A stretch of 64,000 bases of DNA, from positions 244,693-308,692 of the forward strand of contig JAEUKB010000025.1 in NCBI GenBank assembly GCA_016794365.1. Reading direction: 5' to 3'. The notes beneath the pieces were generated by a model that saw nothing but the letters and a program-made list of their open reading frames with translations, did not search any database and was not told the origin of the DNA. The first letter of the stretch is position 1, and each line of letters starts with the position of its first letter. The position numbers and the translations under genes were made by a program. Shown here piece after piece: positions 8,896 to 29,937 of the stretch. This stretch comes from Myxococcales bacterium. GTDB lineage: Bacteria; Myxococcota_A; Polyangia; Palsa-1104; JAEUJZ01.

Positions 8896-10083
8896 ATGTC
8901 GTTTGACAGTGCGCTCAAGAAGGCTGCCGTACACCCCTTTGGCCCATCGAATGGGGCGGTTCCCAAGTCTGTCGCTCCACCTCCCTCTGCACTGCAACCG
9001 ACCGCTGCGCCACCGCCCGCCGCAGCGTCCTTTGTGCAAGCCAAGACGAGTCAGGCACTCTCTAGCTTGTTTGGATTTATGACGGACACGGCAGGTGCTG
9101 CCAAAGCGGCTCCGCAGGCACTGGCCAAGCAGGGACCGTCGCTGGCCTCGAAGGCTGGATCGACCCCTGTTGGGGAGTCTGTTTCCCAAGCTGCGCCCAG
9201 TCCACAGAAGGCTGAGCAGGCCGCCAAGATGGCAGCGCAGACGCTCGGAAAAGCGTCTCCTCCTGATCAGAAAGTCGCGCTGGCTGCGAAGATGGCCGCG
9301 AAGGCTACGCATCCAGAAGCGCCCTCCGAACAGAGAGCCGCGCTCAAGGAAAAGCTCGCAGCGGCGGTCAAAACGGTTCCTGATGGAAAGAAAGCAGAGC
9401 TGGCAAAAAAAGTTGCAGCAGCGACGGCAGAAAAGGACGCTCCTTTCGCAAACAGAGTCGCTCACTTTGCATCGAACCTACGTGGTGGCGCACCAGCATC
9501 CGCACAGGCTCCGCTGCCGCAGACGGTCGGCGCTGGCCCAAATGCAGAGGAAGAGGATCGCAAAATCCTCGATGTCGATTTCCAGCAGCAGGAATGGGGG
9601 CACTGGTGTGGGCCTGCCTCGACGCGGATTGCACTGTCAGCGCGGATGGACAATCCACCAAGTCAGCAAGCGCTGGCTGATCAGCTGGGTACACACGGGG
9701 GCGGAACAGATCACATCGGACTGATTACCTCGGTGCTCAACGATCAGCTGGGCACTGGCTATTACGAAAACAAGCTGATTCCTGGTGCAACTGCGACGGA
9801 TGAAGAGCGCGATCTGCTCTGGAAAGACATCGTCACAGACATCGACAACAACTATCCGATCGTTGCCAACATTGTCGCACCACCGAGCAATCATCCCGAT
9901 GGTTATCCAGACGACGAGACGATTTATCACTATGTAAGCATCATTGGATACGACAAGAGTGATCAGGCTGCGCTCGTCGCTGATCCGGCCAAATTCAATC
10001 ATCGCCCTGGCTTTCAGTCACAGTACTGGATGGGGATCGATAAGCTGGCAGACTTGATTGCGCGCAAGGGCTATTCCGCGTAA
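8896..10083 (+). CDS. Protein with Ala/Lys/Pro-rich repeat N-terminus and C-terminal papain-like (peptidase C39-like, PF13529-type) domain
   Basis: The C-terminal ~170 aa contains QQEWGHWCGPAS (candidate Cys nucleophile) and ETIYHYVSIIGYD (His). The N-terminal 220 aa are low-complexity A/K/P with repeated KMAA/KVAA units. No signal peptide. Confidence 0.5.
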   Translation: MSFDSALKKAAVHPFGPSNGAVPKSVAPPPSALQPTAAPPPAAASFVQAKTSQALSSLFGFMTDTAGAAKAAPQALAKQGPSLASKAGSTPVGESVSQAAPSPQKAEQAAKMAAQTLGKASPPDQKVALAAKMAAKATHPEAPSEQRAALKEKLAAAVKTVPDGKKAELAKKVAAATAEKDAPFANRVAHFASNLRGGAPASAQAPLPQTVGAGPNAEEEDRKILDVDFQQQEWGHWCGPASTRIALSARMDNPPSQQALADQLGTHGGGTDHIGLITSVLNDQLGTGYYENKLIPGATATDEERDLLWKDIVTDIDNNYPIVANIVAPPSNHPDGYPDDETIYHYVSIIGYDKSDQAALVADPAKFNHRPGFQSQYWMGIDKLADLIARKGYSA

Positions 10084-10229
10084 CGCAAGACTGCGCGCGA
10101 AAATGCCGAGGCTCTGCTTATCGGCAGGTGCTGCTTGTCCGCCCAGGTCTGGATTCGCAGCGCATTCCCACAGACTTCCGCAGTGCTGCCAAGAATGATG
10201 ATTTTCCGTCGAGCAGACTGCGATCAGAG

Positions 10230-11099
10230 CTTCAGCCGGTGAACGTCATGGTGGTGACGGATGAATCGAGCGGACAGCAGGATCTGGTCAAGGTGCTCGA
10301 CTTCGGGATTGCCAAGCTCAGCGCCGAATCGACCAGCCAGACCAAGTCGGGCGTGCTGATGGGAACTCCCACCTATATGTCACCAGAGCAGTGCCGGAGC
10401 GGGCGCAATGCGGTGGATCGCAGCGACGTGTATGCGCTTGGTATCATCATGTACGAGATGCTGGCCGGAGCGACTCCGTTTCGGGGTGGACCCGCTGCGC
10501 TGATGATCGCGCATCAGACCCAAGATCCAGCGCCGCTTGCATCGAAAGCTCCGCATGTCTCTGCGGAACTGTGCGCGCTCATCCATCGAATGCTGGCCAA
10601 GAGTCCCGCAGAGCGTCCGACTGCCAGTGAAGTGGTACGGAGTCTGTCTCCGCAAAGTGGACAGATGTCGCAGATCTCGCAGTCGCATCCGCTGATCAGT
10701 AGCAGCATCCAAGCCGTTGCGTTTCAGGATCTTCCGACGGCAATACAGGGAACAAATCCCGCCAGTGCTTCTCTGCTGGGATCGATTCCCAGACAGCGCA
10801 GAGGAACGCTCATCGGAACGGCTGCGGCCTTGGTGCTGATCCTGGGACTTGGTGGACTGTTTGTGCTTCTGACGATGACAGGAAAGGGAAGCGGAGTCTC
10901 TACCTCAGACCTTGGGATGCGCAAAGATGCGGTCATTGTTCCTTCAGATCTTGGGGTTCCTGCTGGATTGTCAAAGCCAGATCCTACAAAGGAAACTGGC
11001 CAGTCCGATCCAGCTCTGCATGGCAAAGCAGAGCGAACCAGCCTCAACAAAGGGAATCGCAGCAAGACTAAGTCGGGACTTCGCCGCTCCACAAAATGA
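10230..11099 (+). pseudogene. C-terminal half (subdomains VIb-XI + TM tail) of the split Ser/Thr kinase
   Basis: LQPVNVMVV, VLDFGIAKL, GTPTYMSPEQ, DVYALGIIMYEML, then TM LIGTAAALVLILGLGGLFVLL. Begins exactly where the 4218 fragment stops. Confidence 0.8.
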
Positions 11100-12021
11100 T
11101 CGTGCGTGCGCTGCGCGGCTGCATTGAAGGACTCGGTCCGCTGTATAGCGGAACGTAGCCCAGGAACTGATTGGGACGCAGCACCATGAAGCTGCGCTGA
11201 TCGCGCAAGATCAGCGATACTTCCAGATACACACCATGACGAGCCAGCAGGGGAAACACCTGCTTGAGCAGGCGCTCGCTGGCTTCCTTGGCCCACGGCG
11301 TTCCGTTTCCGGTCACTGCATCGTCGCTGAGCAGCTTGATCGCAATGGCAGAGACAGGCACAAACGCCACGGCTCCCAGCACAGCACCACTACCAATGGA
11401 CCAGGTTCCCACTTGGATGCCGCGCGTTCGGACAGGACGCTGAAGAGTCGTGCGCGCAATCGAAACTTCCAGCTCGGGATAGAGCTGTGAAAAGACAAAG
11501 TGAACCGTAGACAGACTGCGGATTCCGAGCAAGCTGCGCAGCTGTCCCACGGTCTGGGTGAAGTCAGCAAAGAGGCTGGGATCGCGCTCTGGGAACTGTG
11601 CTTCTACGCTTCCGCGCAGCAGCCGGTGCGCAAAGAAGTTCAGAAAGTCGGTCAGCGTTCCTTCATGCTGCGCATCCAATGCGGCGCGAAAGTAGGAAGG
11701 GAGCAAGCTCTGGGAAGACAGTAGACCCAGGTTGAGCGTGACAATGACTCGTCGCTGCGGGGTCTCGGACCACTCTACTTTGGACACCACCGCAGCCTGA
11801 TGCGTCTGGGTCGCATGACTGCGGAACTCGATCTGATCGCTCTGATAGCCCAGCTCATGCAGTGCATCCAGAAGTGCTCCCAGAGAAAAGCGAACAGCTC
11901 GTTCGCTAATGATGCGTCGCTTGCGATCAAACACTGACTCTGGAACAGGAGCCGCGATTCCTGCTTGGGCGCTGCGTGGTCCTTTGACGATGTCCTTGGG
12001 CGGACGTGGTGGCTGCGGCAT
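11068..12021 (-). CDS. tssG: T6SS baseplate protein TssG (ImpH family)
   Basis: VTLNLGLLSSQSLLPSYFRAALDAQHEGTLTDFLNFFAHRLL matches the TssG core (tvnF.GL.G..g.LP..yte......dg.l.dFld.F.HR). About 317 aa. Confidence 0.7.
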   Translation of the reverse strand: MPQPPRPPKDIVKGPRSAQAGIAAPVPESVFDRKRRIISERAVRFSLGALLDALHELGYQSDQIEFRSHATQTHQAAVVSKVEWSETPQRRVIVTLNLGLLSSQSLLPSYFRAALDAQHEGTLTDFLNFFAHRLLRGSVEAQFPERDPSLFADFTQTVGQLRSLLGIRSLSTVHFVFSQLYPELEVSIARTTLQRPVRTRGIQVGTWSIGSGAVLGAVAFVPVSAIAIKLLSDDAVTGNGTPWAKEASERLLKQVFPLLARHGVYLEVSLILRDQRSFMVLRPNQFLGYVPLYSGPSPSMQPRSARTIILWSGEVPT

Positions 12022-12024
12022 GAC

Positions 12025-13485
12025 TTATCGCTCACTGTCTGCAACAAAGCGATGCACATCGGATCGACACAGGAGCCGCAGCATCTCTGTCTCGAGATCT
12101 TCGCTGGGCTTTAGGTGTGGCTCTAGCTTGCTGCTGTGCTGGATGAGCGCCAGCAGATAGTCAATCAAGAGCGTAGGAAAGTAGCGCGACGGCTCAAACC
12201 CTTGGAGCTTCTTTGCGATGTGCTGTTGCAAGATGGCGGCTCTGCGATAGCGCTGCTTGTTGACCAGCCGCACAAAGCCCGCCAGTTCTGCGAGCAGTAG
12301 CTTCAGCTCTGACCCGAGCGGAATGCTGAGCGTCTCTGCGGCATGACTGGATGGAGCAAGCGCGCTCGGAGCAGCTGCTGGATCCGCTGCCGATGCGGTG
12401 GTCAGCACTTGTGGTACAGGCGATGTACTTGCTTTGTGCGGATCGGCTGCGGATGCATCTACGCTGTCATCATCGCTGTCATCATCGCTGTCATCATCGC
12501 TGTCATCATCATCGCTACGACTTTCCGGTTCGGCTGACTGGTCGCTTCGGCTGTCTTCCGGTTCAGAGTCTTCTTCCTCTTCCTCTTCCTCTTCCTCTTC
12601 CTCATCGCGGGCTGCGTCTTCTTCGTCCGCATCGGTATTGTCTCTTGACTTCGTCTCTGCATCATCGGAGTCCTCGTCCGATTCCTCGTCCGACTTGTCA
12701 TCGTCATCTGAATCGTCATCGGAATCATCATCGGAATCGTCGTCGGAATCGTCATCGGAGTCATCATCTGAATCGTCATCGGAATCATCATCGGAGTCAT
12801 CATCGGAGTCATCATCGGAGTCATCATCGGAGTCATCATCGGAATCATCATCCTTCTTGGGCTCGTCGTCTTCTCCAGGTGGTGGCGGCGGAGCAGGAAT
12901 CTGCGTGGCTCCTTTCAGATCCCAGCCCGCGTTGGCTGCGGGCGCTTGCGCAAGTCCCTGTAGGAGCGATTGAAGGTGGAGCAGCGGCTGCTTGCTGCGT
13001 GAGCCCGGAATGAACTGATCCAGCGTCTCTAACAGCTTGTTGCAGTGCTCCAGAGCTTGCGCTTGCGCGGCATGCTGCCAGTCATGATTCCACTTGGTCC
13101 ACAGCTCATCTTTTTGACGTTCATGAAAGCGAACCTGCGACACGATGCTGTCAAACAGCCAGCGCAGCGAGACATCCAGATGGCGTTCTTTTTTGATCGT
13201 TGGACTCAGGTACGCAAGGTTGTCTGCGATGGCGCGACGAATGCATTCAAACAGCAGACTGAGCGACGCAACACCTCGCTCGACAAACACGCCGAACAGA
13301 TAGCAGCCGATCGTGCGGACATCGTAGATCTGCTGCTGCCAGAGCTTTTGGGCGCGCTCTGCTGCGGGAAGATAGCGATTCTGACTGGTCAGAGACAGGA
13401 TCTCATCCAGCTCGCGATCTTCGATCCCCAACTCGCGCTTTCCCGGCGCTGAGAGGATCTGCTCAAGTGGCTCCGTAACGATCAT
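12025..13485 (-). CDS. TssA-like (ImpA_N-like N-terminus) protein with giant poly-acidic (DDDS)n/(E)n insert
   Basis: The N-terminal EPLEQILSAPGKRELGIEDRELDEI resembles the ImpA_N motif LL.PIS...P.G.DL..D.EF. The central ~130 aa are DSDDDSDDD... and E12. The C-terminus is helical. Tightly linked to tssG. Confidence 0.35.
   Translation of the reverse strand: MIVTEPLEQILSAPGKRELGIEDRELDEILSLTSQNRYLPAAERAQKLWQQQIYDVRTIGCYLFGVFVERGVASLSLLFECIRRAIADNLAYLSPTIKKERHLDVSLRWLFDSIVSQVRFHERQKDELWTKWNHDWQHAAQAQALEHCNKLLETLDQFIPGSRSKQPLLHLQSLLQGLAQAPAANAGWDLKGATQIPAPPPPPGEDDEPKKDDDSDDDSDDDSDDDSDDDSDDDSDDDSDDDSDDDSDDDSDDDSDDDSDDDDKSDEESDEDSDDAETKSRDNTDADEEDAARDEEEEEEEEEEEDSEPEDSRSDQSAEPESRSDDDDSDDDSDDDSDDDSVDASAADPHKASTSPVPQVLTTASAADPAAAPSALAPSSHAAETLSIPLGSELKLLLAELAGFVRLVNKQRYRRAAILQQHIAKKLQGFEPSRYFPTLLIDYLLALIQHSSKLEPHLKPSEDLETEMLRLLCRSDVHRFVADSER
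12440..12850. repeat. 12-bp tandem coding repeats (tcatcatcggag / tcatcatcgctg) plus (ttcctc)n
   Basis: Visible runs of 12-bp units at ~12459-12520 and ~12700-12850 and (ttcctc)n at ~12560-12600. They encode the poly-acidic tract on the minus strand. Confidence 0.8.
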
Positions 13486-13876
13486 GACGGCTCCTTTTCA
13501 GCGTATCTTCACGTAGCGTTGCGTCCTTCTGTCCGGGATCTACTACAGAGATCGTTCCAGCATAGTCACAGCGTAGTGTGGCGCTTTCTTCGACGAGCTT
13601 CTGACCTTGCAAAAGGATTCCTTCTACTTCGTCAGACCATGCATTACCGATCCGAGGCGTACACGGCTTCTGTCCACTCGGGCTCTGTGGGTTCGGATTG
13701 GCTGGCGCTTTGCAGAATCGAAACGGAGGGATGTTCACAAGCGGCAGATGATCATCAATGGTCGCCAGGGATCCATCGCCGCCATGACTGACTCCGCGTC
13801 GCGAGATGCTAAGCCGGACTTCTCCCTGTCCGTACGAACACTGAAGCTTTGCGCCATCACAAACCAACGATGACAT
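13463..13876 (-). CDS. DUF4280 (PAAR-like) protein
   Basis: LVCDGAKLQCSYGQ, NIPPFRFCKAPANPN, PCTP..GNAWS, LRCDYAGTISVVDPGQ. This is the characteristic DUF4280 Cys pattern found with T6SS spikes. Confidence 0.7.
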   Translation of the reverse strand: MSSLVCDGAKLQCSYGQGEVRLSISRRGVSHGGDGSLATIDDHLPLVNIPPFRFCKAPANPNPQSPSGQKPCTPRIGNAWSDEVEGILLQGQKLVEESATLRCDYAGTISVVDPGQKDATLREDTLKRSRHDRYGAT

Positions 13877-13885
13877 CGCGGACTC

Positions 13886-15709
13886 CTACTTCCGAAGGGA
13901 TGCTGCGCGCATCGCGATCAGACCCGCTGGCGTACTGATGCGATGACACGCAAGGATCAGTCGATCAATCAAGTTGAGCGCTGGGTCTTGCGCCCGCTTA
14001 TCCAGCTGTCCTTCTCGATGCTGGCCGGCACACCAGCCGTAGTCGATCGCGCCGTCTTTGGTACGCGGCAGCGCAGCCAGCAGCCGAACGGAGTTGGGCT
14101 CAAAAGACGGTCCCAGGCGCTGACGAATCTGTTCCCGGATCTTGTGCTCTACCTGTATTCGCTTGGTCGCTGTCATACGCCGCATGTGTGGTCCCAAAAA
14201 CACCAGAAAGCTCGCCCTTCCTTTGTCACTCTGTTCGGGAACCAGGACGGCTCCAGCGACGTAGGGAAGCTCTTGGGTGACTGCTTCTACTTCGGTTGCA
14301 CCCAGGCTGTGTCCGCCACTGGAAGGCCAGCGCGTTCCTCCGTACAGATAGCCTCCGTTGTGTTCATAGAGCAGCAGCCCGCAGGCCCCCGGAATCGGTC
14401 GCAGGATTCCGTTTGTACCGCGCGCGGGCTGATCTTCGGCTTGGGGATCGCACAGCGAAAACGGACGACCTGGCGACGGATAGACAAGCTGTGGGGGCGT
14501 ACCCCGCTGCGGCAGAGAGAACAGCAGACAGCCCGCACTTGCTGCATCGTAGTGCCAGCAGCGCACAGGCGTTTTCTCTAGCTCATACTGCGCAGACCAG
14601 TCCTTCCAGTTCAGTGTGTCACTGGCTTCTGTAAAGGCACACAGCCATGATCGCACACCCCGCAGCGGAGCCGCTCTGTGCAAAAGCAGTTGGTCGCGTA
14701 GTAGCGGCTCCACCAGCAGAATATCGACGGGCGGCAGCCGACTTCCCAAAGAGACAAGCTGCGCTGCATCCAGGTGAAGGTAGGTTCCGCCATGCAGCAA
14801 AACCAGTAGAAGGAGTGTCGGCTGATACTGAAGGAGTCGATGCTCTGGCGCGCACACCACGGTGCCAAACTGCGCGGGCTGAATCCCCAGAATCAGTCCA
14901 TCACAGAGCGCACCCAGATAGGCAGAGGACGCATTGACAGCAATGGGAATCCAGCCCGGATCGCGCTGCGGAGAAAACAGCGCAAACAGCGCATCACTGG
15001 CTCCGTAAGGACGCGATCCAAGTGATGTGGTAGCAGGGCTACTTTCCAGCTCTGCGGCGGCTGCCATCGTCTGTTCGGCTTGCTGCGGATGAATGATGAT
15101 CTCTTCGAGCAGTGCATCAGCGAGCGGAACCGCTTGCGGTCCGTACCACTCCTTGAGCAGCGGGTGATAGCGTCGAGCCGTGACAATGTGCTGCGGTCGC
15201 AGTGCGCGCAAGCGATTCGCCAGAAAGTCCGCACCTTGCGGTGGCAGAACCGAGACAACGGCGCCCACACGCAGCGCTGCACACAGCGCCAAAAGCAGCT
15301 CTGGACCCAGGGGATAGATGATGCAGAGGATGTCTCCTGCTTGGACCCCGCGCTTGCGAAAGGAGTCCGCGACAAGCGCTGCTGCGGCATGCAGGTGGCC
15401 ATAGGAAATGGCGCAGAGCGGCTCTGATTCCTTCTGTCCTACAATCGGTCCTTCCGTCGCATACAGCATGGCTGGGCGGCTTCCGTATGGACCCAGTGCG
15501 TGCCGTGCGACTGCATCATGATACAGATCAAAGGCCATCCCAAGCTGGCTCTTGGCTGGCGCTACGCTCAGTCGCGCGGCCTGCTGCATCAGCGCTTCCG
15601 CAAAGGCCGCTGGACTGCGCAGACTCTCTGCCAGCCAAATTCGGTCACGCATGACACCATCGCCAGGCTGCTGTAACTGCAAACGAACTGCATCAAGAGA
15701 GATCATCAT
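13886..15709 (-). CDS. Divergent ANL-superfamily adenylate-forming (AMP-binding) enzyme-like protein
   Basis: The C-terminal subdomain motifs are recognisable: YGGTRW..GGHSLGATEVEAV (Y-G-x-T-E), VLVPEQSDKGRASFLVFL, LPRTKDGAIDYGW (A10-like PKTxSGKI). The N-terminal substrate region LCIIYPLGPELLLALCAALRVGAVVSVLPPQG is present. The P-loop (TSGTTGxPKG) is degenerate. Confidence 0.5.
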   Translation of the reverse strand: MMISLDAVRLQLQQPGDGVMRDRIWLAESLRSPAAFAEALMQQAARLSVAPAKSQLGMAFDLYHDAVARHALGPYGSRPAMLYATEGPIVGQKESEPLCAISYGHLHAAAALVADSFRKRGVQAGDILCIIYPLGPELLLALCAALRVGAVVSVLPPQGADFLANRLRALRPQHIVTARRYHPLLKEWYGPQAVPLADALLEEIIIHPQQAEQTMAAAAELESSPATTSLGSRPYGASDALFALFSPQRDPGWIPIAVNASSAYLGALCDGLILGIQPAQFGTVVCAPEHRLLQYQPTLLLLVLLHGGTYLHLDAAQLVSLGSRLPPVDILLVEPLLRDQLLLHRAAPLRGVRSWLCAFTEASDTLNWKDWSAQYELEKTPVRCWHYDAASAGCLLFSLPQRGTPPQLVYPSPGRPFSLCDPQAEDQPARGTNGILRPIPGACGLLLYEHNGGYLYGGTRWPSSGGHSLGATEVEAVTQELPYVAGAVLVPEQSDKGRASFLVFLGPHMRRMTATKRIQVEHKIREQIRQRLGPSFEPNSVRLLAALPRTKDGAIDYGWCAGQHREGQLDKRAQDPALNLIDRLILACHRISTPAGLIAMRAASLRK

Positions 15710-15766: not shown

Positions 15767-16198
15767 CTACAGCAGCCTGCGACACTCCCGTACTTCGCTG
15801 GCGCGGACTCCACTGCGGCCAAGGGGAATCGTTATTCTCCACGGCAGAAGTGGTGCGACCAGCATCTTCCAGCTTGCCGCAGGTGTGGTGTACAGAAAGT
15901 ACAGACCCAGCGGCTTTTCTTTGTCGTGCTTGATCCAAACGCTGCGATATCGACCGGCCTGTGGATCGATGATGACTGAACGCAAAACAGTTGCATCTGG
16001 CGTCACCACCAGCGCGGACACAGAGGCGTGAGACTCACTGCGCTGCTGCTGCTCATCAACCGAGCGAACCAGCACGCGCAGCGGTCTTCCTTCATTGGTG
16101 CTTGGATCAGACAGCAGCGTCAGTTTGACATAGCCGGGATAGCAGCCGCCAAGGATCAGCACAGCCAAGCCGAACAGCCGTAGCCCAATAAGAGGCAT
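15767..16198 (-). CDS. tssJ: T6SS outer-membrane lipoprotein TssJ-like
   Basis: About 143 aa. Signal plus lipobox LAVLILGGC, then the beta-rich region YPGYVKLTLLSDPSTNEGRPLRVLVRSVDEQQ typical of TssJ/SciN. Start placed at MPLIGLRL to avoid overlap with tssM. Confidence 0.55.
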   Translation of the reverse strand: MPLIGLRLFGLAVLILGGCYPGYVKLTLLSDPSTNEGRPLRVLVRSVDEQQQRSESHASVSALVVTPDATVLRSVIIDPQAGRYRSVWIKHDKEKPLGLYFLYTTPAASWKMLVAPLLPWRITIPLGRSGVRASEVRECRRLL

Positions 16199-16211: not shown

Positions 16212-19200
16212 TTATTGCGCATGTTCGCCAAACAGCTCCCAAGGATCAGGTGTGATCGCAAAGCGAATGATCTGTGTCTCATCCGGGCCATCGCCAATGA
16301 TGCGCCAGGTGCTGACTCCTGTGCCATCCAGCGTCGAGCGCTGAAGCAAGCGATACAGGCTCCAGGCAGAGTCCGTGACCTCTAGTGTTTGGGTGTGCTT
16401 GCGTCCGGTCTTGGCCACTGTGCGCTCCACCCCGATGACCGCCGCGCCTTGTGCCCACCACTCTACTTGCAGCGTGGTTGCGCTGCTCTGCTGGTTGAAA
16501 CCATAGGCGCTGGCTTTGCCAATCTGCAAGTAGGCCAGTGCGGACTGGGCCGTGCTTCCGCTGCTTGACTGGGGACCAGGCAGACCGCGAATCGCCAGCT
16601 GGAGCGGCTGCCGATTCCCATCCGCAGAAAACAGTGCGCGCGACAGCTTGGCCAGCTTGTTCATCGTCGGAAGCATGTCTTTGGGAAGCCGCAGAGTGCC
16701 CAGCGCTCCGCTCTTTGCAACGTATGATTCCCCGCGCTCTGTTACGGCCACTGCATACAAGCTGCGGAGATCTGCAAACAGGGGTCCTCTGCGCTCGCTG
16801 AGCACATCCAGATCGCTCGGTGCAACCTCACGCTCCGCACCGCGCTGAAACGGAAAGCGACTCATCAGCGGAGTGATCTGCGGCTGCATCACCTCTTTCC
16901 AGTGCTGCGCAAACACCTGCTCGATCTCGGTAGAGCCAAGCTGATGAACCGCTAAAAACGGCGCGAGGAACGGTCGCCGCAGCGGACCCGCAATGCCTGC
17001 GCGATCGAGGAACTGCTCTGCTTTGGCCAGGCTCGACTCTTCGCTTCCTTCATGCATCGCGAGCGCACTGCGGGCCAGCGCAGAGAGCTTGCTAGTCAGC
17101 ACGGCAGACTTGTCTTGCGTCGCAGCGGACTTGTCTGCTCTGTCCCCCTTGTCGCTTCCTGAACTCGACTTGTCTGTGGATGCTGTGGGCGCACGATCCA
17201 GATCTGCGATCAGCTTGGCCACCGCTTCATGAAAGGTCGCAAGTCCTTCGACCTTGCTCGATGCAGTGTCACTTGTCGGACGCGTTCCTTGCGCTGCATC
17301 TGGCTGTCCTGCCGCTTTGGGATCGCTCTTGGCTGCGGGGGCCTGACTCTTGGGAGTCATCAGCTCCACGATCGGACGGAAGTCCGCAATGCAGGTCGCA
17401 AGCGGTCGCAGGTAGGGTTCCTCTAGTCCTTGGAGCGTGACGTTATCGACCAGCGTTTTGAGGCGCGCCACAAAGCGCGATCCTGGCTTGATGATGTCCA
17501 CCAGCTCGGAGTGAAGCTGCGACGGAGATACGGCGCTGATGCGATATCCCAAGTGATACTCCAGCAGCGCTGCACAGTAGCCTTGGGAATAGCGCGCCAG
17601 CTCCTTTTGCACGGCCCGCGACAAAGAGATCCGCTCTTCTGCACTGAGGTTGCGATGTCCTCCCAGCGCCTTCTTCAGCTCGGTCACCAGCGGCAAGACC
17701 TCGCGATGATAGACCACGCGGTTGTAAACATCCGATAGACCCACAGCAGGCAGCTCATCGCCGGTTAGGAGTGCCGCGAGCTTGGGCGTAAACTCCTCCT
17801 GGCTCCACAGCGGCAGCGCAGTCGGTCGATCGATCAGCTTTTTGGCAGAGCCGCTGGAAGCCGGGCTGCGTGCTGTCACTTTGCAAGGCGGAAGCAGTCC
17901 GCGCTTTTTGCCAAGCTTGCTACATCGCTTGGTACGCACTGGTCCTTCGGTGGGATGCGGTGCAGACTCATCCATCGAAAACGTCCGCTTGCGACTGCGT
18001 GTAAGCAGCTCTTCCCAGTCTCTGCGGCTGATGTCGATGGCGCTTCCTTCCGCAGGAAACAGAAAGCGATAGGAATCCGAAAGCAAGTGCTCGGAAGACT
18101 TTTTTGCCGACGCTGATTCACTGGTTTCATTGAGCCAGCGCAGCAGCTGATACAGGCTCTTGGTTCCGGCTTGTTCGGTGGTGATGTTGGAATCGCTGAC
18201 CATGCGCAGCAGGCGCTCCATCGGATCTTTTTGATCGAGCAGCCATGGATCAGGGGTTAGGATTCCTACCTCTTGACCGAACAGCTTGAGCATGTCGAGC
18301 GGAGACTCTTCCGCGAGGTTGCGATACCACTGGCGAAGCTGCGCGGCTCGACGCAAAGCCAGCATTCCTTCGATCAGACCGGCACTCCGCTGCTGAAGCG
18401 CAGAAAGCTCTGCTCGGGTGATGTAGGGACGTGCGATCGCATTGTGAACATCGTAAATGAACGCCTTCCACGGACTTAGATCACTGAGCGAATAGCGCAG
18501 GCTCTCTGGTGGAAAAGGAGGCAACGTAGCGATGGCAACCTCTGTCCACGGATCCGTACTGTACTGAATGTAGTCCAGCAGTGTATCGCGTGGGACATTC
18601 AAGTCCGTGGACCAGTCGGTTGCCGATGCCTTGATGAGCGATCCCAGCGTGTTGTCCTTGGTTGCGTACAGCGCCACGAGTGCTCCCAGGATCTTGTCGC
18701 GCGCACGCTGTCGAATCGCTCGCTCCAAGCTGGGCAACAGATAGCCCTTGCGGATCGACTCAATAAAGAGTCTTTCAGAATGCTTCTTATCGGTTCGATA
18801 GATCAGATGAAACGGACGGAAGCGCTGCTCTGCTTCACTGGTGGCAAGCAGCGACTGACTGGCGCTGCGCTCGGCTCTGCGGACGACATCCGATTCACCA
18901 CTGTTGTGCGCAGTCTGAGCGCGAACCACGGCCTGATCAAACGTCAGGTTGGCTTCGCTGGCGGCTTCAACGACCACATGATGGCGACGGGTGACATAGG
19001 TCAGTCCGAACAGTCCCAGACACAGCATCAGCAGCGCCAGCATCGCGTGTACAGGACGAATCCCAAAGGGACGAAGCCAGCGAGCCAGCCGCGATCCCAG
19101 CGCAGTGCTTCTTACTTGGGGCGGGGGCGTAAAGGGGTTGCTGATCTGTTCATCCGCAGCCAGCGATGCAAAGTAGATCCCCTGCACTTCAGGACGAAGG

Positions 19201-20135
19201 GAGCCAATCGCAAGATCGGTCAGTGCAGAGACAAAGCTGGCCGTCGGTGATAGGAACTGATCGGCACCACGCAGAAACTCGACAATGCTCTCAAAGGAAG
19301 ACACCGGCAGCGTCGTCAACGCACGCGGCAGATAGCGCTCATAGTGCGTCATCGACTCGCTTAGATCGCTGTGTGGATCCGCACCAACAGAGAGCTCTAG
19401 CGGGGCCTGTTCTTTGGCCAAAAAGCGCGCCAGATCCGAATAGCCACGCAGTCTGTCCATATGGGTCAGACAGATGCGAACGCGGCCAGTGCTGCCATAG
19501 GTTTCAGACAGCACATTGATCTTGCCGCGCAGAAGCTGGGCTTGCTGACGCAGCTGATCGGGGGGCTGGGTGATGAGCAGAGGCGCAGACAGAACTACAA
19601 TCACCGTCGGAATCTGCTCGACTTCCAGGCTCTTCCACAGCTTGGTCAGCGCGTCGTTGTAGCTCTGCGCAGTGCCATCCTGAATCGCAGAAGAGAACTC
19701 CTCAACCAGGACTTGGCTGCCCAGATAAAGCTGTAGGAGTGGGTCTGCGGTGTAGCTCGGAATGAACTGACTGGTCTGTCCTTGCCAGTCTACTTTGCGA
19801 CTGATGAGCGCACTCTTTCCTGCACCTGTGTTGCCAAAGACAACGAAGTGCGGAAGCTCTGGTGTCGTCGCCCGAACACCGCTGGGAAGTCGAGACTGGA
19901 AGCGTTCCCAGATGTCGCTGAGCCGCGTCTTGGTCATGCTCTGCGCTGGGGTTACGTACGCGGTTCCTTCTTCGCGACGCTTGCGCAGCTTGAACCACCA
20001 AAATAGTAGGACGGCTCCGGCCACAATCAGCAGCACAAACAGAGCCGCCAGGACATAGACATAGGTCGGTCGGGAAGTGGCTCCTGCCGATCCGTCCGTC
20101 GAGGCTGTGGCCAAAGGAAGAAGCACAGACAGCAC
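16212..20135 (-). CDS. tssM: T6SS membrane complex protein TssM (IcmF family)
   Basis: 1307 aa. N-terminal TM helices, Walker A FGNTGAGKSALISRK, a long periplasmic IcmF-like region. Sits immediately after tssL. Confidence 0.85.
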   Translation of the reverse strand: MLSVLLPLATASTDGSAGATSRPTYVYVLAALFVLLIVAGAVLLFWWFKLRKRREEGTAYVTPAQSMTKTRLSDIWERFQSRLPSGVRATTPELPHFVVFGNTGAGKSALISRKVDWQGQTSQFIPSYTADPLLQLYLGSQVLVEEFSSAIQDGTAQSYNDALTKLWKSLEVEQIPTVIVVLSAPLLITQPPDQLRQQAQLLRGKINVLSETYGSTGRVRICLTHMDRLRGYSDLARFLAKEQAPLELSVGADPHSDLSESMTHYERYLPRALTTLPVSSFESIVEFLRGADQFLSPTASFVSALTDLAIGSLRPEVQGIYFASLAADEQISNPFTPPPQVRSTALGSRLARWLRPFGIRPVHAMLALLMLCLGLFGLTYVTRRHHVVVEAASEANLTFDQAVVRAQTAHNSGESDVVRRAERSASQSLLATSEAEQRFRPFHLIYRTDKKHSERLFIESIRKGYLLPSLERAIRQRARDKILGALVALYATKDNTLGSLIKASATDWSTDLNVPRDTLLDYIQYSTDPWTEVAIATLPPFPPESLRYSLSDLSPWKAFIYDVHNAIARPYITRAELSALQQRSAGLIEGMLALRRAAQLRQWYRNLAEESPLDMLKLFGQEVGILTPDPWLLDQKDPMERLLRMVSDSNITTEQAGTKSLYQLLRWLNETSESASAKKSSEHLLSDSYRFLFPAEGSAIDISRRDWEELLTRSRKRTFSMDESAPHPTEGPVRTKRCSKLGKKRGLLPPCKVTARSPASSGSAKKLIDRPTALPLWSQEEFTPKLAALLTGDELPAVGLSDVYNRVVYHREVLPLVTELKKALGGHRNLSAEERISLSRAVQKELARYSQGYCAALLEYHLGYRISAVSPSQLHSELVDIIKPGSRFVARLKTLVDNVTLQGLEEPYLRPLATCIADFRPIVELMTPKSQAPAAKSDPKAAGQPDAAQGTRPTSDTASSKVEGLATFHEAVAKLIADLDRAPTASTDKSSSGSDKGDRADKSAATQDKSAVLTSKLSALARSALAMHEGSEESSLAKAEQFLDRAGIAGPLRRPFLAPFLAVHQLGSTEIEQVFAQHWKEVMQPQITPLMSRFPFQRGAEREVAPSDLDVLSERRGPLFADLRSLYAVAVTERGESYVAKSGALGTLRLPKDMLPTMNKLAKLSRALFSADGNRQPLQLAIRGLPGPQSSSGSTAQSALAYLQIGKASAYGFNQQSSATTLQVEWWAQGAAVIGVERTVAKTGRKHTQTLEVTDSAWSLYRLLQRSTLDGTGVSTWRIIGDGPDETQIIRFAITPDPWELFGEHAQ

Positions 20136-21557: not shown

Positions 21558-23200
21558 CGTCCGTTTTGCCTTTCACTGGGAAGCTGTTCGCGGCTGTGAT
21601 GACGAACCACTTCCGCGCGTCCTTCATAGTTCCATGCATCCAAAAGGCGCTGAAGCTGCTGACAGAACATGTGCCACAGCGGCTCTTCTTCTGCGCGAAC
21701 ATCGGGAACCAGCGCGTGATAGATGTGACGGATTCCTGCGCCGCGCACTGTCTCGTCGGGAGTCAGCTCAACCACCCAGTCGCGAATGCGCGAAAGGAAG
21801 CCGCGATACGGTCCACTTGATCCCGCTTCTAGCATGACAAACAGGGCGTTCAGATCTTCCAGATCAAGCACCGCTTTCATCTTCAGCGAGAGCAAACGCA
21901 GCAGCGCTGCTGCATCCTGACCTAGTTGGGAGTCTGCTCCGCGCTGCATCGGACCCAGTGCGGAAAGCTCGACCCCAAGCATGCTGCGCTCGCGAAGGGT
22001 GATGCTCAGTCGTCCACTTAGATGCTCGCTCAGCGACGGTTGATGCCAGACTCCTTCCACCGCGATGCGCACAGGTTGAAGCAGTGCTTCTGGCATCCGC
22101 AAGATCAGTGCAGCGCGTGGTAAGGATCCTCGCTCATCGGACTGCTGCTCCAGCTCAAAGCTTGGAGTCTTGTTGCTAAGAGTGACCGGAGGAATCGGAA
22201 CCAGTCCATCATCACTTGCTGCAAAAACGCCGGTGATGTGATGCAGTGCGTAGCTCTGATCCGGATGCACAAAACGAACCGGATAGGAGTCCTGGGTTCC
22301 GTCGCAGTCTATCGGCTGCGCAGGTGCCTTCCGTAGTGCCGAAATAGGGACCGTAAAGGGCCTAAAGATCTCGCGATACAGCACAGGACGATGTGGGTAG
22401 TCTGCATCCAGATCAAAGCACAGAGACATCCGGGTAAATGGTCGCGGCGATGCCGGAATCGCAACATGAATGGTTAGCTCTTGCTGCGGAAAGTGTAGAA
22501 AGCTACGAACCGCTGCGAGTGGATTGCGATCATCTGCTTCATATGGTTCATCATGGTACGTTCCAAAGTGAACCGGACAGGTGGGACCGTCTGCGCGATC
22601 ATGAACCGGCTGATCGTACAGCACGAACGCGCGCTGCATGTGTCTCTGTAGCTGCTGATGAACCGTGAGCGCGGCGAGATAGTCATCCAGATAGTGAATC
22701 CCAAGTCGCATCCGTCCCGGTGGTTCACTGCGCGGAATCCGCGAAGAGAAGGTCAACACCAAGCGATAGCCTGTCCCACCGCGCAGCAGCTCACAGCGAT
22801 CGAGCGTCAGTGGAAGCACGCGCAGATCCATTCGGGTCATGAAGCTGGCTAGAAATCCGTCCGCACACTGGACTTGCAACTCGCTTCCAGCGGGCAGATA
22901 GACCGGCTCTGTCATCCGCGCTGTGACTTGGGCTTCCAGGATTCCCATCGCAGGAAGGGGCTGGAGCAGCGACTGAAAGTAGCCACCTAGGAGTCGTCGC
23001 CACGTTGCGCTCAGGTTGCGCAGGACCGCATGTCGAGTCCGCACCGCAGAAAATGCCAGCACCTCGATCAACCGCTGCACATCGGGGTCTTGGGGATCGA
23101 GTACACCGATCCCCTGACTGCTGCTGTAGTTCCGTCGAAAAGACTCCAGTCCGCGTAGCTCATCTAGGAGTCCGAGATCGAGCGTGTGATTAGCTGCCAA
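21554..23200 (-). CDS. tssF: T6SS baseplate protein TssF (ImpG family)
   Basis: The N-terminal LDELRGLESFRRNYSSS...LDPQDPDVQRLIEVLAFSAVRTRHAVLRNLSATWRRLLGGYFQSLLQPLPAMGILE matches the TssF consensus (Y.rEL.yLRe....F...P.....DP.VERLLEGfAFL.AR). 548 aa. Confidence 0.75.
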   Translation of the reverse strand: MAANHTLDLGLLDELRGLESFRRNYSSSQGIGVLDPQDPDVQRLIEVLAFSAVRTRHAVLRNLSATWRRLLGGYFQSLLQPLPAMGILEAQVTARMTEPVYLPAGSELQVQCADGFLASFMTRMDLRVLPLTLDRCELLRGGTGYRLVLTFSSRIPRSEPPGRMRLGIHYLDDYLAALTVHQQLQRHMQRAFVLYDQPVHDRADGPTCPVHFGTYHDEPYEADDRNPLAAVRSFLHFPQQELTIHVAIPASPRPFTRMSLCFDLDADYPHRPVLYREIFRPFTVPISALRKAPAQPIDCDGTQDSYPVRFVHPDQSYALHHITGVFAASDDGLVPIPPVTLSNKTPSFELEQQSDERGSLPRAALILRMPEALLQPVRIAVEGVWHQPSLSEHLSGRLSITLRERSMLGVELSALGPMQRGADSQLGQDAAALLRLLSLKMKAVLDLEDLNALFVMLEAGSSGPYRGFLSRIRDWVVELTPDETVRGAGIRHIYHALVPDVRAEEEPLWHMFCQQLQRLLDAWNYEGRAEVVRHHSREQLPSERQNGR

Positions 23201-26200
23201 GCGGTCCTCCCTTCTTCGCTAGCGCTGCGCTGATTCCTTGGGTCAGACTGCTGACTGTGATTCCTACAGCACTTGGCACGACGGCGTCCTTGGCCGACTT
23301 GACATCTCCTTGCATTGCGCTCTGTCCGCTCGAAGCCAGTGTCTGTTTGAGAGCTGCCTTGGCATCGCTTGCGAAGGGAATCCCAGCACTTGTGACAGCG
23401 CTTGCAGCCGTGACAGCAGAAGAGAGCCCACTTGTGGCTGCGCTCTGCGCTGTACTGCCCAACGCAGAGCTTGGTGCCGCAGACTTCGGATCACTATTGG
23501 CCAACGGAGCGCTCTTGGCTTGAGAGTCCGTCTTGGCTTGGGAATCCGTCTTGGCTTGGGAATCTGTCTTTTCTTTGGCGTCCGTCTTCGACGCTGGCGC
23601 GCTCGACTTGGAGCCTGTCTTGGTCAGCAGATCTTTCATGAACGTGACCAGCTGCTGCTGCACTTGCAGGACATTCTGTCCGTAGTTGAGTAGGCTGCTC
23701 AGCTCTGTCTCGGGCAGGACAGTCTTCGGCTTGCTGGCCATCGAAAAGGCACCCGCTGTCTCATAAGGCTGCTGACCAGGAATCATCATTCCTTGAAACA
23801 GAGAGCTCATCAGCGTCATGGTATCGATCGGATTGAGTGTGACGCTGAGTCCTTTGGAGGACGTGCCATAGGTCTTTTCCAGCACCTTCGCAAACTGCGT
23901 TCCGTAGTCTCCCGCAAACAGAGAGCCTTTCTTCTTCATCTCATCCAGCAGCGTTCCTCCCCCGCCGCCCATGCCTGCTTTGCTGCCGAGCTGATCCATT
24001 CCTGGCATTCCGCTCGCTCCGTTCATGCCAGGAACTCCACTCGCTCCGTTCATGCCAGGAATTCCGCTCGCTCCGTTCATGCCAGGAATTCCGGACATGG
24101 GACTTCCTGTCATGAAGGAAGACTCTGATCCGCCGCCCCCAAGGAGCGATGCAGTCGGATTCCCATTCATCAGCAGAGAGGCTGCTCCCGCACCAGACAG
24201 CGCAGCGTTTCCCGCCGGTAATGATGTGAGTCCGCTTCCGCCCATTCCGCCGCTGTTTGGCTGTAACGTCGCTGCTGCCGCAAACGGATTGCTCAGTCCG
24301 CCGAATCCACCGGCAGCACCAGCGAGACTTGCGACTCCTGCACCAGCTTGTGCCATGGATGATGCAGCGGAGCCACCTGAAGCGAAGCCACTGCCTGAAG
24401 CGAAGCCACTGCCTGAAGCAGAGCCACTGCCTGAAGCAGAGCCACTGCCTGAAGCTGTCGGTGCTTTGGCGGCGGAACCTCCGGTGGAAGGAGTCATTCC
24501 CGGAAGTGTTGTCAAGCTAGGAAGCGTGGCCGCAGTGGCCGTCGGATTGAATCCTTCGGTTGCAAAGAACGGACTGCCTGTGCTCAGTGCGCCGCTGCTT
24601 CCGATTGGTGACGCTCCGGTGAACGATCCGGCTCCTCCCATTCCACCTGCGGGCTGTGTACTGCTCGATCCGAGCTGCGCAGCGGAGCCACCCAATGCGG
24701 AACCCGCAGTCGATGCGGATGGCGCAGCTTGCGCAGACGATGGCATCTGTGAAGCAGACTGTGAAGCAGACTGTGATGTAGATGCAGCGGACTGTGACGC
24801 CGCAGCAGGAGATGAAGACGATGCAGAAGAGGAGCCCGAAGACTCCTGACCCGCAGCGAGTCCTCCCAGAGCGGACAGACCGCCTCCGATCAGACCCAGC
24901 GTGCCACCCAAAAAGCTGGCATCTGGGCGCAGCAGCTTGAGCGCACTCTGCGCCGCAACACCAAGCGGTCCCAGCGCGGTAAATGTCGATTGAAACGCAT
25001 AGTTTACCGCGTCATCAATTCCGCCATCATCCGCTGCACTGCCCGAACCGCTGCCCGAACCACTGCCCGAACCACTCGCAGAAGGAGTCGAAGCTCCTGG
25101 AGCAGCTGGACTTACGGACTGTGAACCAGGCGATGAACTGTTTTGTGAACTGTTTTGTGAGCCGCTCTGTGAACCGCTCTGTGAACCACTCTGTGAACCG
25201 CTCTGTGAACTTTGCGGAGAGCCAGAGCCCGTCGCACCAGGCAGTAGCTCACCCAGCAGTCCTTTGGGCAGAAGTCCTGGCAGAACCTGTCCCATGTTTG
25301 GCATCCCAAGCTGCCACTGATTGCGCAGAAGACCACCCAAGGTAAGCAGCGTATTGAGCTGCGATTCCGTCGGTGCTTCACTTCCGCCTGTGCTGCCTGC
25401 ACCCTGTCCTCCGGCCTGGCTGGTTGCTGGGGAAGGACTTGCTGGCTGGCTCTGTAGGGTGGTTCCTGGAATCGCCGCACCAGCCAGCGCTGCGGTGCCA
25501 CTGGGTGATGAGGACGGACTCTGGCCCATGCTTTGGCCCACGCTTTGGCCCATGCTTTGGCCCATGCTTTGGCCCATGCTTTGGCCCGTGCCTTGACCGA
25601 CTCCTTGTGCCGCTCCCGGTGTTGCACTCTGCGCTGTGCTCTGCGTCGAGTTCTGCGCCGGACTCTGTGCTGATCCCTGGGTCTGGCTTTGCGTTGCGCT
25701 GGCTGAAGACTTGGCATCTGCCGTCGGCAAAAAGCCCGGTGGCAGGAGAGCTGCGGCCAAGACGCCCAGCTCACTTGATGCCGACAGCAGGCTCCCGATT
25801 CCCGGCACTTGACCAAGGACAGACACAAAGCCCACTGGCCCAAGCAAGTTGGACATTCCGGTCAGTAGCTGCGGCATCAGCTGTGGAGTCAGCGCGGCAA
25901 GCTGCTTTTCATCCAGCTGGGAAATCAGGCTCTGTACAGACGGAAGATCGCTGGATCCACTGGCAGTCTTGCTGGCCCCAGATGTGCTCTGGCTGGATGT
26001 ACTGGATGGTGTACTGCCTGGACCGCTCAGGCTCTTTTGCGTACTTTGAGAGTTTTGACTACTTTGAACATTCTGACTGCTCTGATTGTTCTGATTGCTC
26101 TGAATATTTTGAGAATTTTGAACATTCTGACTGCCCTGACTCTTACTCTGGCTACTCTCACCGTTCTGGCCACTCTGGCTGCTGTTGGTACTGCTCTTTT

Positions 26201-27899: not shown

Positions 27900-29937
27900 T
27901 TACTGCGGACCTCGCGGAGTAGACGGAGTAGTGGGTCCACTCGGACTTGGCGAAGGTGTACTACTTGGCGGAGTCGTAGACGGACTTGTCTGTGGACTTG
28001 TCTGTGGACTTGTCTGTGGACCTGTCTGTGGACCTGTCTGTGGACCTGTCTGTGGACCCGGTGGGCGCGGTCCGCTTGTACCCGGCTGCGTCGTGGCTGG
28101 GACTCCTCCCGGTAGCGGCGGAGAGCCAGTAGGAGGCACTGCGGGCATTCCCAGCGGCACCACAATCTTGCGTCCAACCAGGGTTCCTGTTGTAACGCCA
28201 ACCGGAGGGATTCCCACCTGAAGCAGCAGGTTCCCTTCCGCAATCTTGACCAGCTCACTGTCGAACTGATTCAGTCGCTCGATCTCAAAGACCGGCTTTT
28301 CATTTTCATAGGAGTGCTGAACCGATGTGCGATTGATCGGCGTCTTGCCCAGCAGGAGCTGATCTCCTTGCGTCTCCATCGGGAGCTGCGCGGTCGCTCG
28401 CCACTCGCGGAACTGACAGATTTCTGCGCGATCAAAGTACAGCTCAACCAGGATGCGCTCGTATTTATATAATGGAAAATAGAACTGCCCAGGAATGGTG
28501 TTCGGGTGATATGGTGTTGTAATGATTTGATTCGCAAATAGCGGGATCATGACTTTGTACTTCGGCAGCATATTGCGAGGGTCAGGATAAAACTGATACG
28601 TCTCCTCTGTGCTGGTTCCTACTTCGCTAACGACGCGGCCTTCGATGGCTACTGGATATTTTGGTAGAATATATGGAGGAATGCGAAGCTCGGGATCACT
28701 TGCCAGCTCTAAAAATACAATTGTGTGGCAATGAAACTTGGCTGGAACCAGGCCATCATACACTTGGCGAATGTCTGTTTCGTCGCTGCGTCCGCTGAGT
28801 GTGATGCGATAGACACGACATAGCTCGCGCTGTGCTTCAAATGGAATTGCAATATCTTCTGCTGAAAAATCAAGCAAATCGAGCTGAAAATCAACACCTA
28901 CATTTGGGAAATATGGCTTGCTTGGAAATGTTCGATAATGAATCAAAAACTCTGGGCGTGGCATCATGAATGCCTTGGTTCTTTTCTGAAACTCACTTTC
29001 AAATTCGCTTTGAATTTCTGTGTTGAACAGATGATCGTGGCGAATTCCTAGCACTTTGTCGATATTATCTATCGGACGATTCTGGACCGCGCTTACAAAG
29101 TCGTTTAGGACGTTTTTTTGATATCTTGGATAGGATGGGTAATACGCATAAATACGATCAACATCGTGCGGAATGATGTCGAAGGGAGTCGGTCGCGGCT
29201 TGATTCCGTGAATCTGATAGACCTTGCGGGTGTAGTCGTACTGCCAGACCTTCCCCATCTCATCCAGACGCCACATCAGCAGGTCGTAAAAGCTGGCGCG
29301 CTCACTTTTGCGATGTTCGGAGTCACAGCCCAAAAAGATCATGGGCTGCACGATTCCTACATCCAGATCGGGATACTCCACCATGATGTGGGTGGTGCGA
29401 TGCGCATCGATCACTTGACGGAGAGACTTCTGCGTAAACAGCTCGCACGGAAAGTGTTGTCGCCACAGCACCTGCGCAGGATCCGCAAAGCGGAGAAAGT
29501 AGCGCCGATAGGACAACAGATCGTTTCCGAGCTTGGCAACATGCTCGGTCAGTGCGCTCTCTGTGACCAGTCCGTTTACCTCGATCGGAGTCGGTGGAAT
29601 ATTGAGATCTTGATCCGCGCGGAAGGCCTGAATCGTCATCCGCAGCTTGAGCATCGACTTCTGGCGAAACATCGTGATGATGCCATCGCGATCATCGCTC
29701 TGTAGCTCTGCGCTATCGGATACCAAGATCGTGAGCGATCCGGAAAAGCCACTGCTGCGCAGATCGAGATCAAAGTCGATCACGTTGTGACCACTTAGCA
29801 GGATCGGACGCGGAAGGGTGACAGAGCTTAGCTCGATGCGAAAGATGAGTCCTTCGCGATAGCTCTTGGCCGCGTCACACAGCGCATCAAACAGCGGTCT
29901 GTCTTCACGGATGGTATTACGCGCCACGACGCACCTC
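27900..29937 (-). CDS. Large unknown protein (~679 aa) between tssE and the giant gene; Tyr/Phe/Lys-rich body with Pro/Thr-rich C-terminal tail
   Basis: The ORF track gives 27900..30014. A GTG at 29937 preceded by GAGAGG gives a 21-nt overlap with tssE instead of 98 nt. The body is visibly more AT-rich (28300-29200) than its neighbours. The tail is (GPQT)6 then SPQTSPQTSPSTTPPSSTPSPSPSGPTTPSTPRGPQ. No family motif recognised. Confidence 0.5.
27981..28052. repeat. 12-bp x6 tandem repeat ggac(t/c)tgtctgt encoding the (QTGP)n tail
   Basis: Direct reading of the sequence. Confidence 0.9.

Follow-up and report, generated by a model that had tools for sequence, protein, structure and literature searches.

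In a 64,000-nucleotide stretch of a Myxococcales genome (contig JAEUKB010000025.1, positions 244,693 to 308,692; here called the window), we analyzed a protein of 607 amino acids (aa) and 65.9 kDa that is encoded within a type VI secretion system (T6SS) operon. Its gene (13886-15709, minus strand) lies directly upstream of a gene for a DUF4280 PAAR-like spike-tip protein. We found that the protein is a true homologue of the ANL superfamily, by descent and by fold, in which the residues needed for adenylate formation have been replaced or deleted. It belongs to a sharply bounded family, undescribed until now, that is restricted to T6SS clusters and is usually adjacent to DUF4280. We think it probable that this ANL-like protein is a noncatalytic subunit of a Francisella-like T6SS, descended from acetyl-CoA synthetase (Acs) and serving the spike and baseplate as a scaffold or adaptor.

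Descent, fold, and active site of the ANL-like protein

An original prediction, made from the DNA sequence alone, described the protein as a divergent adenylate-forming enzyme and suggested a search against the AMP-binding profiles. Both Pfam models matched above threshold, AMP-binding (PF00501) with 37.2 bits against 29.9 and AMP-binding_C (PF13193; residues 473-553) with 25.3 bits against 24.5. The AMP-binding match covered residues 100-207 only (the A1-A2 region; profile positions 21-129 of 384). The retained A1-A2 region (residues 97-162; 15224-15421, minus strand) is the sole part of the protein that is strongly recognized by Pfam AMP-binding and by the Acs models. The nearest NCBIfam models were those of acetyl-CoA and acetoacetyl-CoA synthetase, but the score of about 60 bits lies far under their cut-offs, which exceed 600 (725 for Acs). 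We also found that the family profile matched Acs chains in the PDB at 1.8e-11 and that hhalign aligned it with Escherichia coli Acs at 98.8% probability over 498 columns. Identity to AMP-forming acetyl-CoA and acetoacetyl-CoA synthetases is 12-18%.

The predicted structure agrees with these matches. A first AlphaFold2 model drew on 25 close homologues and was of mediocre quality (pLDDT 67.6; residues 387-470 disordered), yet Foldseek matched it to Acs over its full length with an E value of 2e-22. A model built from 81 sequences, which supersedes the first, reached a pTM of 0.93 with a confident inter-domain arrangement, and the two-domain ANL fold is present in it. The protein ends in a helical tail (13889-14041, minus strand; helices 557-606) with the signature D-x-x-W-C-x-x-Q-x-x-x-G-x-L-x-(R/K)-(K/R), in which W559 is conserved in 90%, G567 in 97%, and L569 in 96% of sequences. 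Because the protein has an N-terminal extension and a C-terminal "DP + helix" tail, we place its ancestor among the enzymes of the acetyl-CoA/acetoacetyl-CoA synthetase type.

To follow the active site, we mapped the catalytic residues of Acs by profile alignment onto the ANL-like protein and 170 family sequences. As originally predicted, the P-loop is degenerate: TSGSTGKPKG of motif A3 reads SPQRDPGWIP. The loop FSPQRDPGWIP (residues 245-255; 14945-14977, minus strand), which takes the place of YTSGSTGKPKG, contains no Lys and no Gly-rich turn. K270 corresponds to G252 (Lys in 0 of the 170 sequences) and K272 to I254 (Lys in 9/170). Motif A5, WQTETGG, is replaced by YDAASAG (residues 387-393; 14531-14551, minus strand), with only the two Gly kept; across the family, G419 is found in 137/170 and G420 in 165/170. 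Thr416 and Glu417 have become Ala389 and Ala390, and these positions hold Thr in 3/170 and Glu in 0/170. The motif Y-G-x-T-E, which had been cited as evidence for an adenylating enzyme, is absent from the protein by pattern search. It is probably a merger of YGGTR (456-460, aligned with the A8 hinge region) and GATE (470-473).

Motif A7 (Y-x-S-G-D, with Asp500), an invariant catalytic signature of Acs (PMC3438747), is deleted throughout the family. Acs residues G499-R503 fall in a gap, and about 24 residues around A7 are missing. Just downstream of this deletion is a remnant of the A8 hinge region, YGGTRWPSSGGHSLGATEVE (residues 456-475; 14285-14344, minus strand). Here R515 has become T459, with Arg in 0/170 (a one-residue shift of the alignment would give Arg in 38/170), the hinge residue D517 has become W461 (Asp in 19/170), and R526 has become S468. 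A Pro occupies the hinge segment (P462) in 106/170 sequences. The A10-like motif of the original prediction, PRTKDGAIDYG, is present at residues 548-558 and aligns with LPKTRSGKIM of Acs; its catalytic Lys is not retained. In LPRTKDGAID (residues 547-556; 14042-14071, minus strand) this Lys is replaced by Ala554, and the K609 position holds Lys in 16/170 sequences, with Glu, Gly, and Ala as the most frequent residues.

The catalytic Lys and the P-loop residues, whose survival had been left for a motif alignment to judge, are replaced both here and across the 170 members. With the residues of the P-loop, A5, A7, A8, and A10 all replaced or deleted, the adenylation or ligase activity once proposed for the protein would be lost, and these motifs make an adenylating function very unlikely. 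In contrast, several structural residues are kept (G514 in 149, G524 in 146, E531 in 138, and P603 in 131 of the 170 sequences). Positions conserved at 80% or more are mostly Gly, Pro, Trp, Leu, and Phe, and conserved polar residues are few (D65, D270, R338, and E473). Because the catalytic residues have been lost while the skeleton of Gly, Pro, and aromatic residues has been kept, selection appears to have acted on the fold and not on the chemistry, as in a pseudoenzyme. The family also has motifs of its own: FSP...P, LRDG, DAAxGG, PRRxGRxYP, and DxxWCxxQ...GxL.

We determined the extent of the family by several searches. A word-indexed search returned only 25 close relatives, all full length and at least 49% identical, and the same 25 and nothing more when repeated with the 81-sequence alignment. 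By exhaustive profile search, we recovered 260 full-length representatives of 50%-identity clusters at E<1e-30, and the number rose to 777 at E<1e-10; we take at least 260 clusters at 50% identity as a lower bound of family size. Nearly all of these matches are 540-620 aa long, and the profile fits them best over the divergent central and C-terminal region. In a further search, made with AT-rich members, family members scored at E<=1e-78, and the next match, a true acetoacetyl-CoA synthetase, scored at 8e-5. It returned 54 family members, Francisella not among them. The sequences come from Myxococcota, Planctomycetota, and metagenomes. Named members are from Pyxidicoccus, Corallococcus llansteffanensis, Corallococcus sicarius, and Planctomycetota metagenome-assembled genomes (MAGs), and the lineage of the window itself consists of uncultured Myxococcales MAGs. 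In databases, members are called "AMP-binding protein," "long-chain fatty acid--CoA ligase," or hypothetical. Full length, conservation, and a confident predicted fold led us to reject a decaying pseudogene. In two members (P0105 and P0169), the C-terminus is extended by 170-250 residues of proline-rich PPPEGE or APPSD repeats, and the extension finishes with the conserved acidic tail ESDVMLxxDD.

T6SS context and the DUF4280 partner

One long minus-strand T6SS operon holds both the ANL-like gene and the DUF4280 gene. Its order is TssB, TssC, a 213-aa protein, TssK, a TssE-like open reading frame (ORF), a 704-aa protein, a 1568-aa protein, TssF/IglH, DotU, a 194-aa protein, TssM, an IglE-type lipoprotein, the ANL-like protein, DUF4280, an IglI-family protein, and TssG. 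The intergenic gaps had been given as 10 and 58 bp; we measured 9 nt between the ANL-like and DUF4280 genes and 57 nt between the IglE-type lipoprotein and ANL-like genes. GGAG precedes the DUF4280 start within the 9-nt spacer, and we found no terminator-like site in either the 9-nt or the 57-nt gap. The predicted cotranscription with TssM and the TssJ analogue, here of the IglE type, is supported.

The DUF4280 protein (137 aa; 13463-13876, minus strand) is the counterpart of IglG. It matched PF14107 with 80.9 bits (cut-off 26.3) over profile positions 1-109 of 109, and the Cys pattern seen earlier was borne out: Cys13 is kept in 25/28 orthologues, and Cys55, Cys72, and Cys103 are kept in 28/28. 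Four conserved cysteines define the DUF4280 or PAAR-like family (PMC5014421, PMC5349215), and those of the window protein are presumed to bind metal. The domain begins at residue 5 with no N-terminal extension, so that the protein amounts to a minimal domain plus a 20-residue basic tail. The DUF4280 proteins of one sublineage (L002, L003, and L052) are larger (about 150-250 aa) and have Gly/Ser/Ala-rich low-complexity segments at both termini.

We next compared gene neighborhoods, since co-occurrence of DUF4280 and ANL genes had been proposed as a check. All eight genome loci (8/8) keep the order 1568-aa protein, TssF, DotU, 194-aa protein, TssM, IglE, ANL-like, DUF4280, IglI, TssG, so that the pairing of the two genes is no accident. 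Distant members examined singly, including those in Pyxidicoccus and Planctomycetota genomes, were also found in T6SS clusters. A metagenome scan with a 12-sequence subgroup as the query gave 47 further loci. Among loci with at least 2 kb of flanking sequence, other recognizable T6SS genes were present in 44/47, and the remaining 3 end at the ANL gene. Collapsing at 90% identity left 35 informative nonredundant loci (one, L025, was read by hand), in which DUF4280 matches were counted only at E<1e-20. The DUF4280 gene directly follows the ANL gene in 22 of them. It directly precedes it in 2, where the module is inverted, is fused to it in 1, lies elsewhere in the locus in 1, and is absent from the available sequence in 9. 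Thus, the two genes are adjacent or fused in 25 of the 35 loci, and the proposed co-occurrence holds. Because the IglI-family gene directly follows the ANL gene in loci without DUF4280, we write the conserved unit as ANL-(DUF4280)-IglI-TssG.

The fusion, P0030, is a single 778-aa ORF in which an ANL-like body is followed by a linker of about 80 residues and a C-terminal DUF4280 domain (Pfam, 67 bits). It sits in a TssE-...-TssF-DotU-...-IglI-like-TssG-like cluster. By the Rosetta-stone argument, this natural fusion suggests that the ANL-like protein and DUF4280 associate physically.

In L013 (CP150359.1, 13.8 Mb), an eCIS_core gene (PF13699; 8531-9754, minus strand) lies divergently upstream of the ANL-DUF4280 pair and adjoins two large unannotated genes, and TssB and TssC appear as one 1325-aa product.

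Proposed role and alternative explanations

Several components of the window system are of a Francisella type. Among solved structures, TssC (32390-33880, minus strand) matched IglB best, with 389.5 bits against 358.5 for the next structure, and TssB (33922-34545, minus strand) matched IglA best, with 101.8 bits against 63. Further Francisella-type components are the IglE_N match (56 bits), the IglI-family match (NF041244, 180.6 bits), the DUF4280 tip, and weaker matches to the IglG and IglH models. T6SS-ii has been stated to occur only in Francisella (PMC12955703). The similarity of these sheath proteins to IglA and IglB suggests a wider Francisella-like T6SS clade. Because TssB, TssC, and TssK also score well on canonical TIGRFAM models, the window system may be intermediate.

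The Francisella island has the order pdpB-iglE-vgrG-iglF-iglG...iglI-iglJ (PMC5014421). Previous work demonstrated that IglF, a 67.9-kDa protein encoded directly upstream of iglG, binds IglG. Without iglF or without iglG, sheath assembly drops to about one event in 400-500 cells, and both proteins are required if assembly is to be initiated efficiently (PMC5014421, PMC5924787, PMC5481754). Primer sequences place the iglF stop against the iglG start (PMC4144950). The ANL-like gene is likewise directly upstream of, and translationally coupled to, a DUF4280/iglG gene. Its product is of similar size (65.9 kDa versus 67.9 kDa), and the neighborhood runs in the same order: TssM/PdpB, IglE, (VgrG), the protein in question, IglG, and, further on, IglI and IglJ/TssG.

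According to our model, an enzyme of the acetyl-CoA/acetoacetyl-CoA synthetase type would have kept its two-domain fold while losing ATP binding and acyl-adenylate formation, and the resulting pseudoenzyme would have been recruited as a fixed, noncatalytic subunit of a Francisella-like T6SS. The ANL-like protein would be made together with the DUF4280 tip by translational coupling and most likely binds it. By analogy with IglF and IglG, it probably takes part in assembling or loading the spike and baseplate ahead of firing, and it might be cosecreted with the spike. The original prediction had offered modification or loading of an effector as a role; a part in loading or assembling the spike is plausible for a scaffold, and the catalytic route falls away.

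Several observations weigh against this model. DUF4280 is missing from the available sequence of 9/35 loci, in which an IglI-family gene directly follows the ANL-like gene, and IglI and TssG, and with them the baseplate, may be the more constant partners. We mapped the motifs by profile alignment and on a predicted structure, not an experimental one. Lys at the A10 position in 16/170 sequences, together with the adenine-region Glu388 in 108/170, leaves room for residual nucleotide binding. The likeness to IglF is one of gene position, size, and neighborhood. Finally, IglF binds the N-terminal helix of IglG, and the window DUF4280 protein is without such a helix.

A larger proposal goes beyond the window. 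The ANL-like family may be the ancestral form of IglF, with IglF a fast-evolving Acs-derived pseudoenzyme. T6SS-ii would then be one branch of a much wider clade that includes Myxococcota and Planctomycetota among others, and the core subunits of these systems would include an ANL-fold scaffold coupling the PAAR-like tip to the IglI/TssG baseplate. We advance this tentatively and at somewhat less than even confidence. The ends of IglF deduced from published primers (PMC4144950), MNNDIDKW... and ...ASKKLIGKF, are compatible with family membership and uninformative, and sequence derived from the primers had no match among viral contigs. When we ran the NCBIfam models on the window protein and six AT-rich members, we obtained weak matches of the Acs/ACS type and none to an IglF-type model.

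A different explanation is that the ANL-like protein is cargo, that is, an effector carried on the PAAR-like tip with a nonenzymatic or other activity in target cells, as was first proposed for IglF. Its gene adjoins or is fused to a PAAR-like gene, PAAR extensions are commonly effectors (PMC5014421, PMC8651086), and IglF has been reported as secreted in some assays (PMC5924787). However, effectors vary from cluster to cluster and usually come with immunity genes, whereas this gene is fixed in the structural module of hundreds of clusters in two phyla, and we found no immunity-like gene adjoining it. In addition, deletion of iglF impairs assembly itself (PMC5481754), and the 9/35 loci noted above have no adjacent PAAR-like gene. 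The earlier suggestion that the protein is itself an effector fits poorly with a fixed module member found across hundreds of divergent clusters, and we regard cargo as unlikely.

Another explanation is a ligand-sensing switch, in which the hinge of domain alternation in ANL proteins would have taken on a new use, with a metabolite (for example, an acyl-CoA or a nucleotide) gating assembly of the spike or baseplate. The two-domain architecture is kept (pTM 0.93), the Glu388 equivalent is partly retained, and conformational changes of ANL proteins can couple to ligand binding (PMC10590383). Against this, the hinge residue Asp517 is not conserved, P462 (106/170) argues for a rigid link, the phosphate- and ribose-binding residues are gone, and no conserved pocket has been demonstrated. 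We consider a switch improbable.

The protein might still be an adenylate-forming enzyme or ligase with an unorthodox active site, working for the T6SS by modifying or activating an effector or small molecule. Passing the gathering thresholds of AMP-binding and AMP-binding_C, the intact overall ANL fold, and retention of LPRTKDGAID, Gly419/420, Gly524, Glu531, and Glu388 (108/170) speak for this. In view of the motif losses described above, we judge it highly improbable. Last, a metabolic acyl-CoA ligase gene that lies in the operon by chance, as the source annotations of the cultured Pyxidicoccus and Corallococcus members would have it, is refuted by synteny (8/8 loci), T6SS context (44/47), the DUF4280 fusion, the lost catalytic motifs, and scores far under every NCBIfam enzyme cut-off (e.g., 60 bits versus 725 for Acs).

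If the scaffold model is true, a contractile injection machine has taken up an enzyme of central metabolism as one of its structural parts, and several hundred database entries named as CoA ligases would be corrected. The model would also supply a structural hypothesis that can be tested for IglF, a protein with a role open since 2016. Because Francisella-like T6SS gene sets are common in culturable predatory and environmental bacteria (Corallococcus and Pyxidicoccus), these could serve as tractable models.

Neighboring genes and comparison with known systems

Downstream of DUF4280, the module is completed by the IglI-family gene (12025-13485, minus strand; NF041244, 180.6 bits against a cut-off of 100), whose start overlaps the DUF4280 gene end by 23 nt, and by TssG, the IglJ counterpart (11068-12021, minus strand), the last gene of the conserved ANL-DUF4280-IglI-TssG module. 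The IglI-family protein contains an acidic low-complexity insert of about 190 residues (about 195-390), with DDSDDDS-type repeats and a stretch of poly-Glu. With its 290 positions, the NCBIfam IglI model covers residues 26-481, across this insert, whose length differs among orthologues (412-490 aa). Upstream are the IglE-type outer-membrane lipoprotein, the TssJ analogue (15767-16198, minus strand; Pfam IglE_N, 56 bits), with a likely start at Met44 of the listed ORF and the lipobox LILGGC, and TssM/IcmF, the PdpB counterpart (16212-20135, minus strand), which was identified by profile matches.

Between TssK and the 704-aa ORF, we recognized by eye and by analogy a 141-aa TssE/gp25-like ORF (29917-30342, minus strand; N-terminus MSFLNRFLE...LQSVMRNLQNLLCARPGY). 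The gp25 genes that adjoin TssK in L011-L014 and L062 are the basis of the analogy. A baseplate wedge protein is thus probably present in the window cluster. Since the ORF overlaps the listed GTG start of the 704-aa ORF, the 704-aa protein probably starts further downstream than that GTG. The 704-aa protein (27900-30014, minus strand), which ends in PQTG/PQTS repeats, and the 1568-aa protein (23190-27896, minus strand) are both conserved, and neither had a Pfam, NCBIfam, or PDB sequence match. Their genes sit at the place expected for VgrG/PdpA-like spike proteins. Relatives of the pair elsewhere are single proteins of 1560-1700 aa (L011, L043, L049, and L057).

Just outside the operon end is a gene for a papain-like Peptidase_C39_2 protein (8896-10083, plus strand), a candidate effector with a C-terminal domain (72 bits) and an Ala/Pro/Lys-rich N-terminal half; it had no matches in related loci and is not conserved there. 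A Ser/Thr-kinase-like ORF (10128-11099, plus strand), which begins inside the kinase domain and comprises the C-terminal lobe and a transmembrane segment, converges on tssG, with an overlap at the tssG 3' end. In most related loci, a kinase gene has the same convergent position, which hints at posttranslational regulation of the T6SS. Divergent from tssB is a gene for a sigma-54 enhancer-binding protein (34841-36454, plus strand); such a gene also flanks the L011 cluster. A -24/-12-like element, TGGCATATCGGTTGCA (34504-34519, minus strand), lies just inside the 5' end of the listed TssB ORF, upstream of the VipA domain start. The sigma-54 promoter pattern occurs 3 times in the window against 3.6 expected and is not above chance.

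We found no paper connecting ANL proteins with T6SS in a literature search. In comparison with Acs and acetoacetyl-CoA synthetase (PF00501 and PF13193), the ANL-like family differs in the replaced or deleted A3, A5, A7, A8, and A10 residues, in its confinement to T6SS clusters, and in its own new motifs. Its partner shares with DUF4280/IglG proteins the full-length PF14107 domain, the four Cys, and the location in a T6SS operon; in contrast to IglG, it has no N-terminal alpha-helical extension, and it scored 21 bits on the NCBIfam IglG model against a cut-off of 200. As for IglF, we found no description of it as ANL-like, and it is missing from the second Francisella island, whereas the ANL-like family is near-universal in its clade.

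T6SS accessory proteins that assemble or load the VgrG-PAAR spike are known, and none has the ANL fold. Like the PAAR adaptors (DUF2169 TvpA, DUF4123 Tap/TEC, and DUF1795 Eag), which act as nonsecretory or cosecreted helpers, have their genes next to those of PAAR or VgrG proteins, and are required for a secretion-competent spike, the ANL-like protein is encoded beside a PAAR-like gene. TvpA, for example, stabilizes a DUF4150 PAAR protein (PMC13373197). The adaptors are unrelated to the ANL-like protein in fold and ancestry. Moreover, Tap/TEC, Eag, and TvpA are dedicated to particular effectors or spike paralogues of T6SS-i; the gene of the ANL-like protein, in contrast, is a constant member of the core set of a Francisella-like T6SS and is paired with DUF4280.

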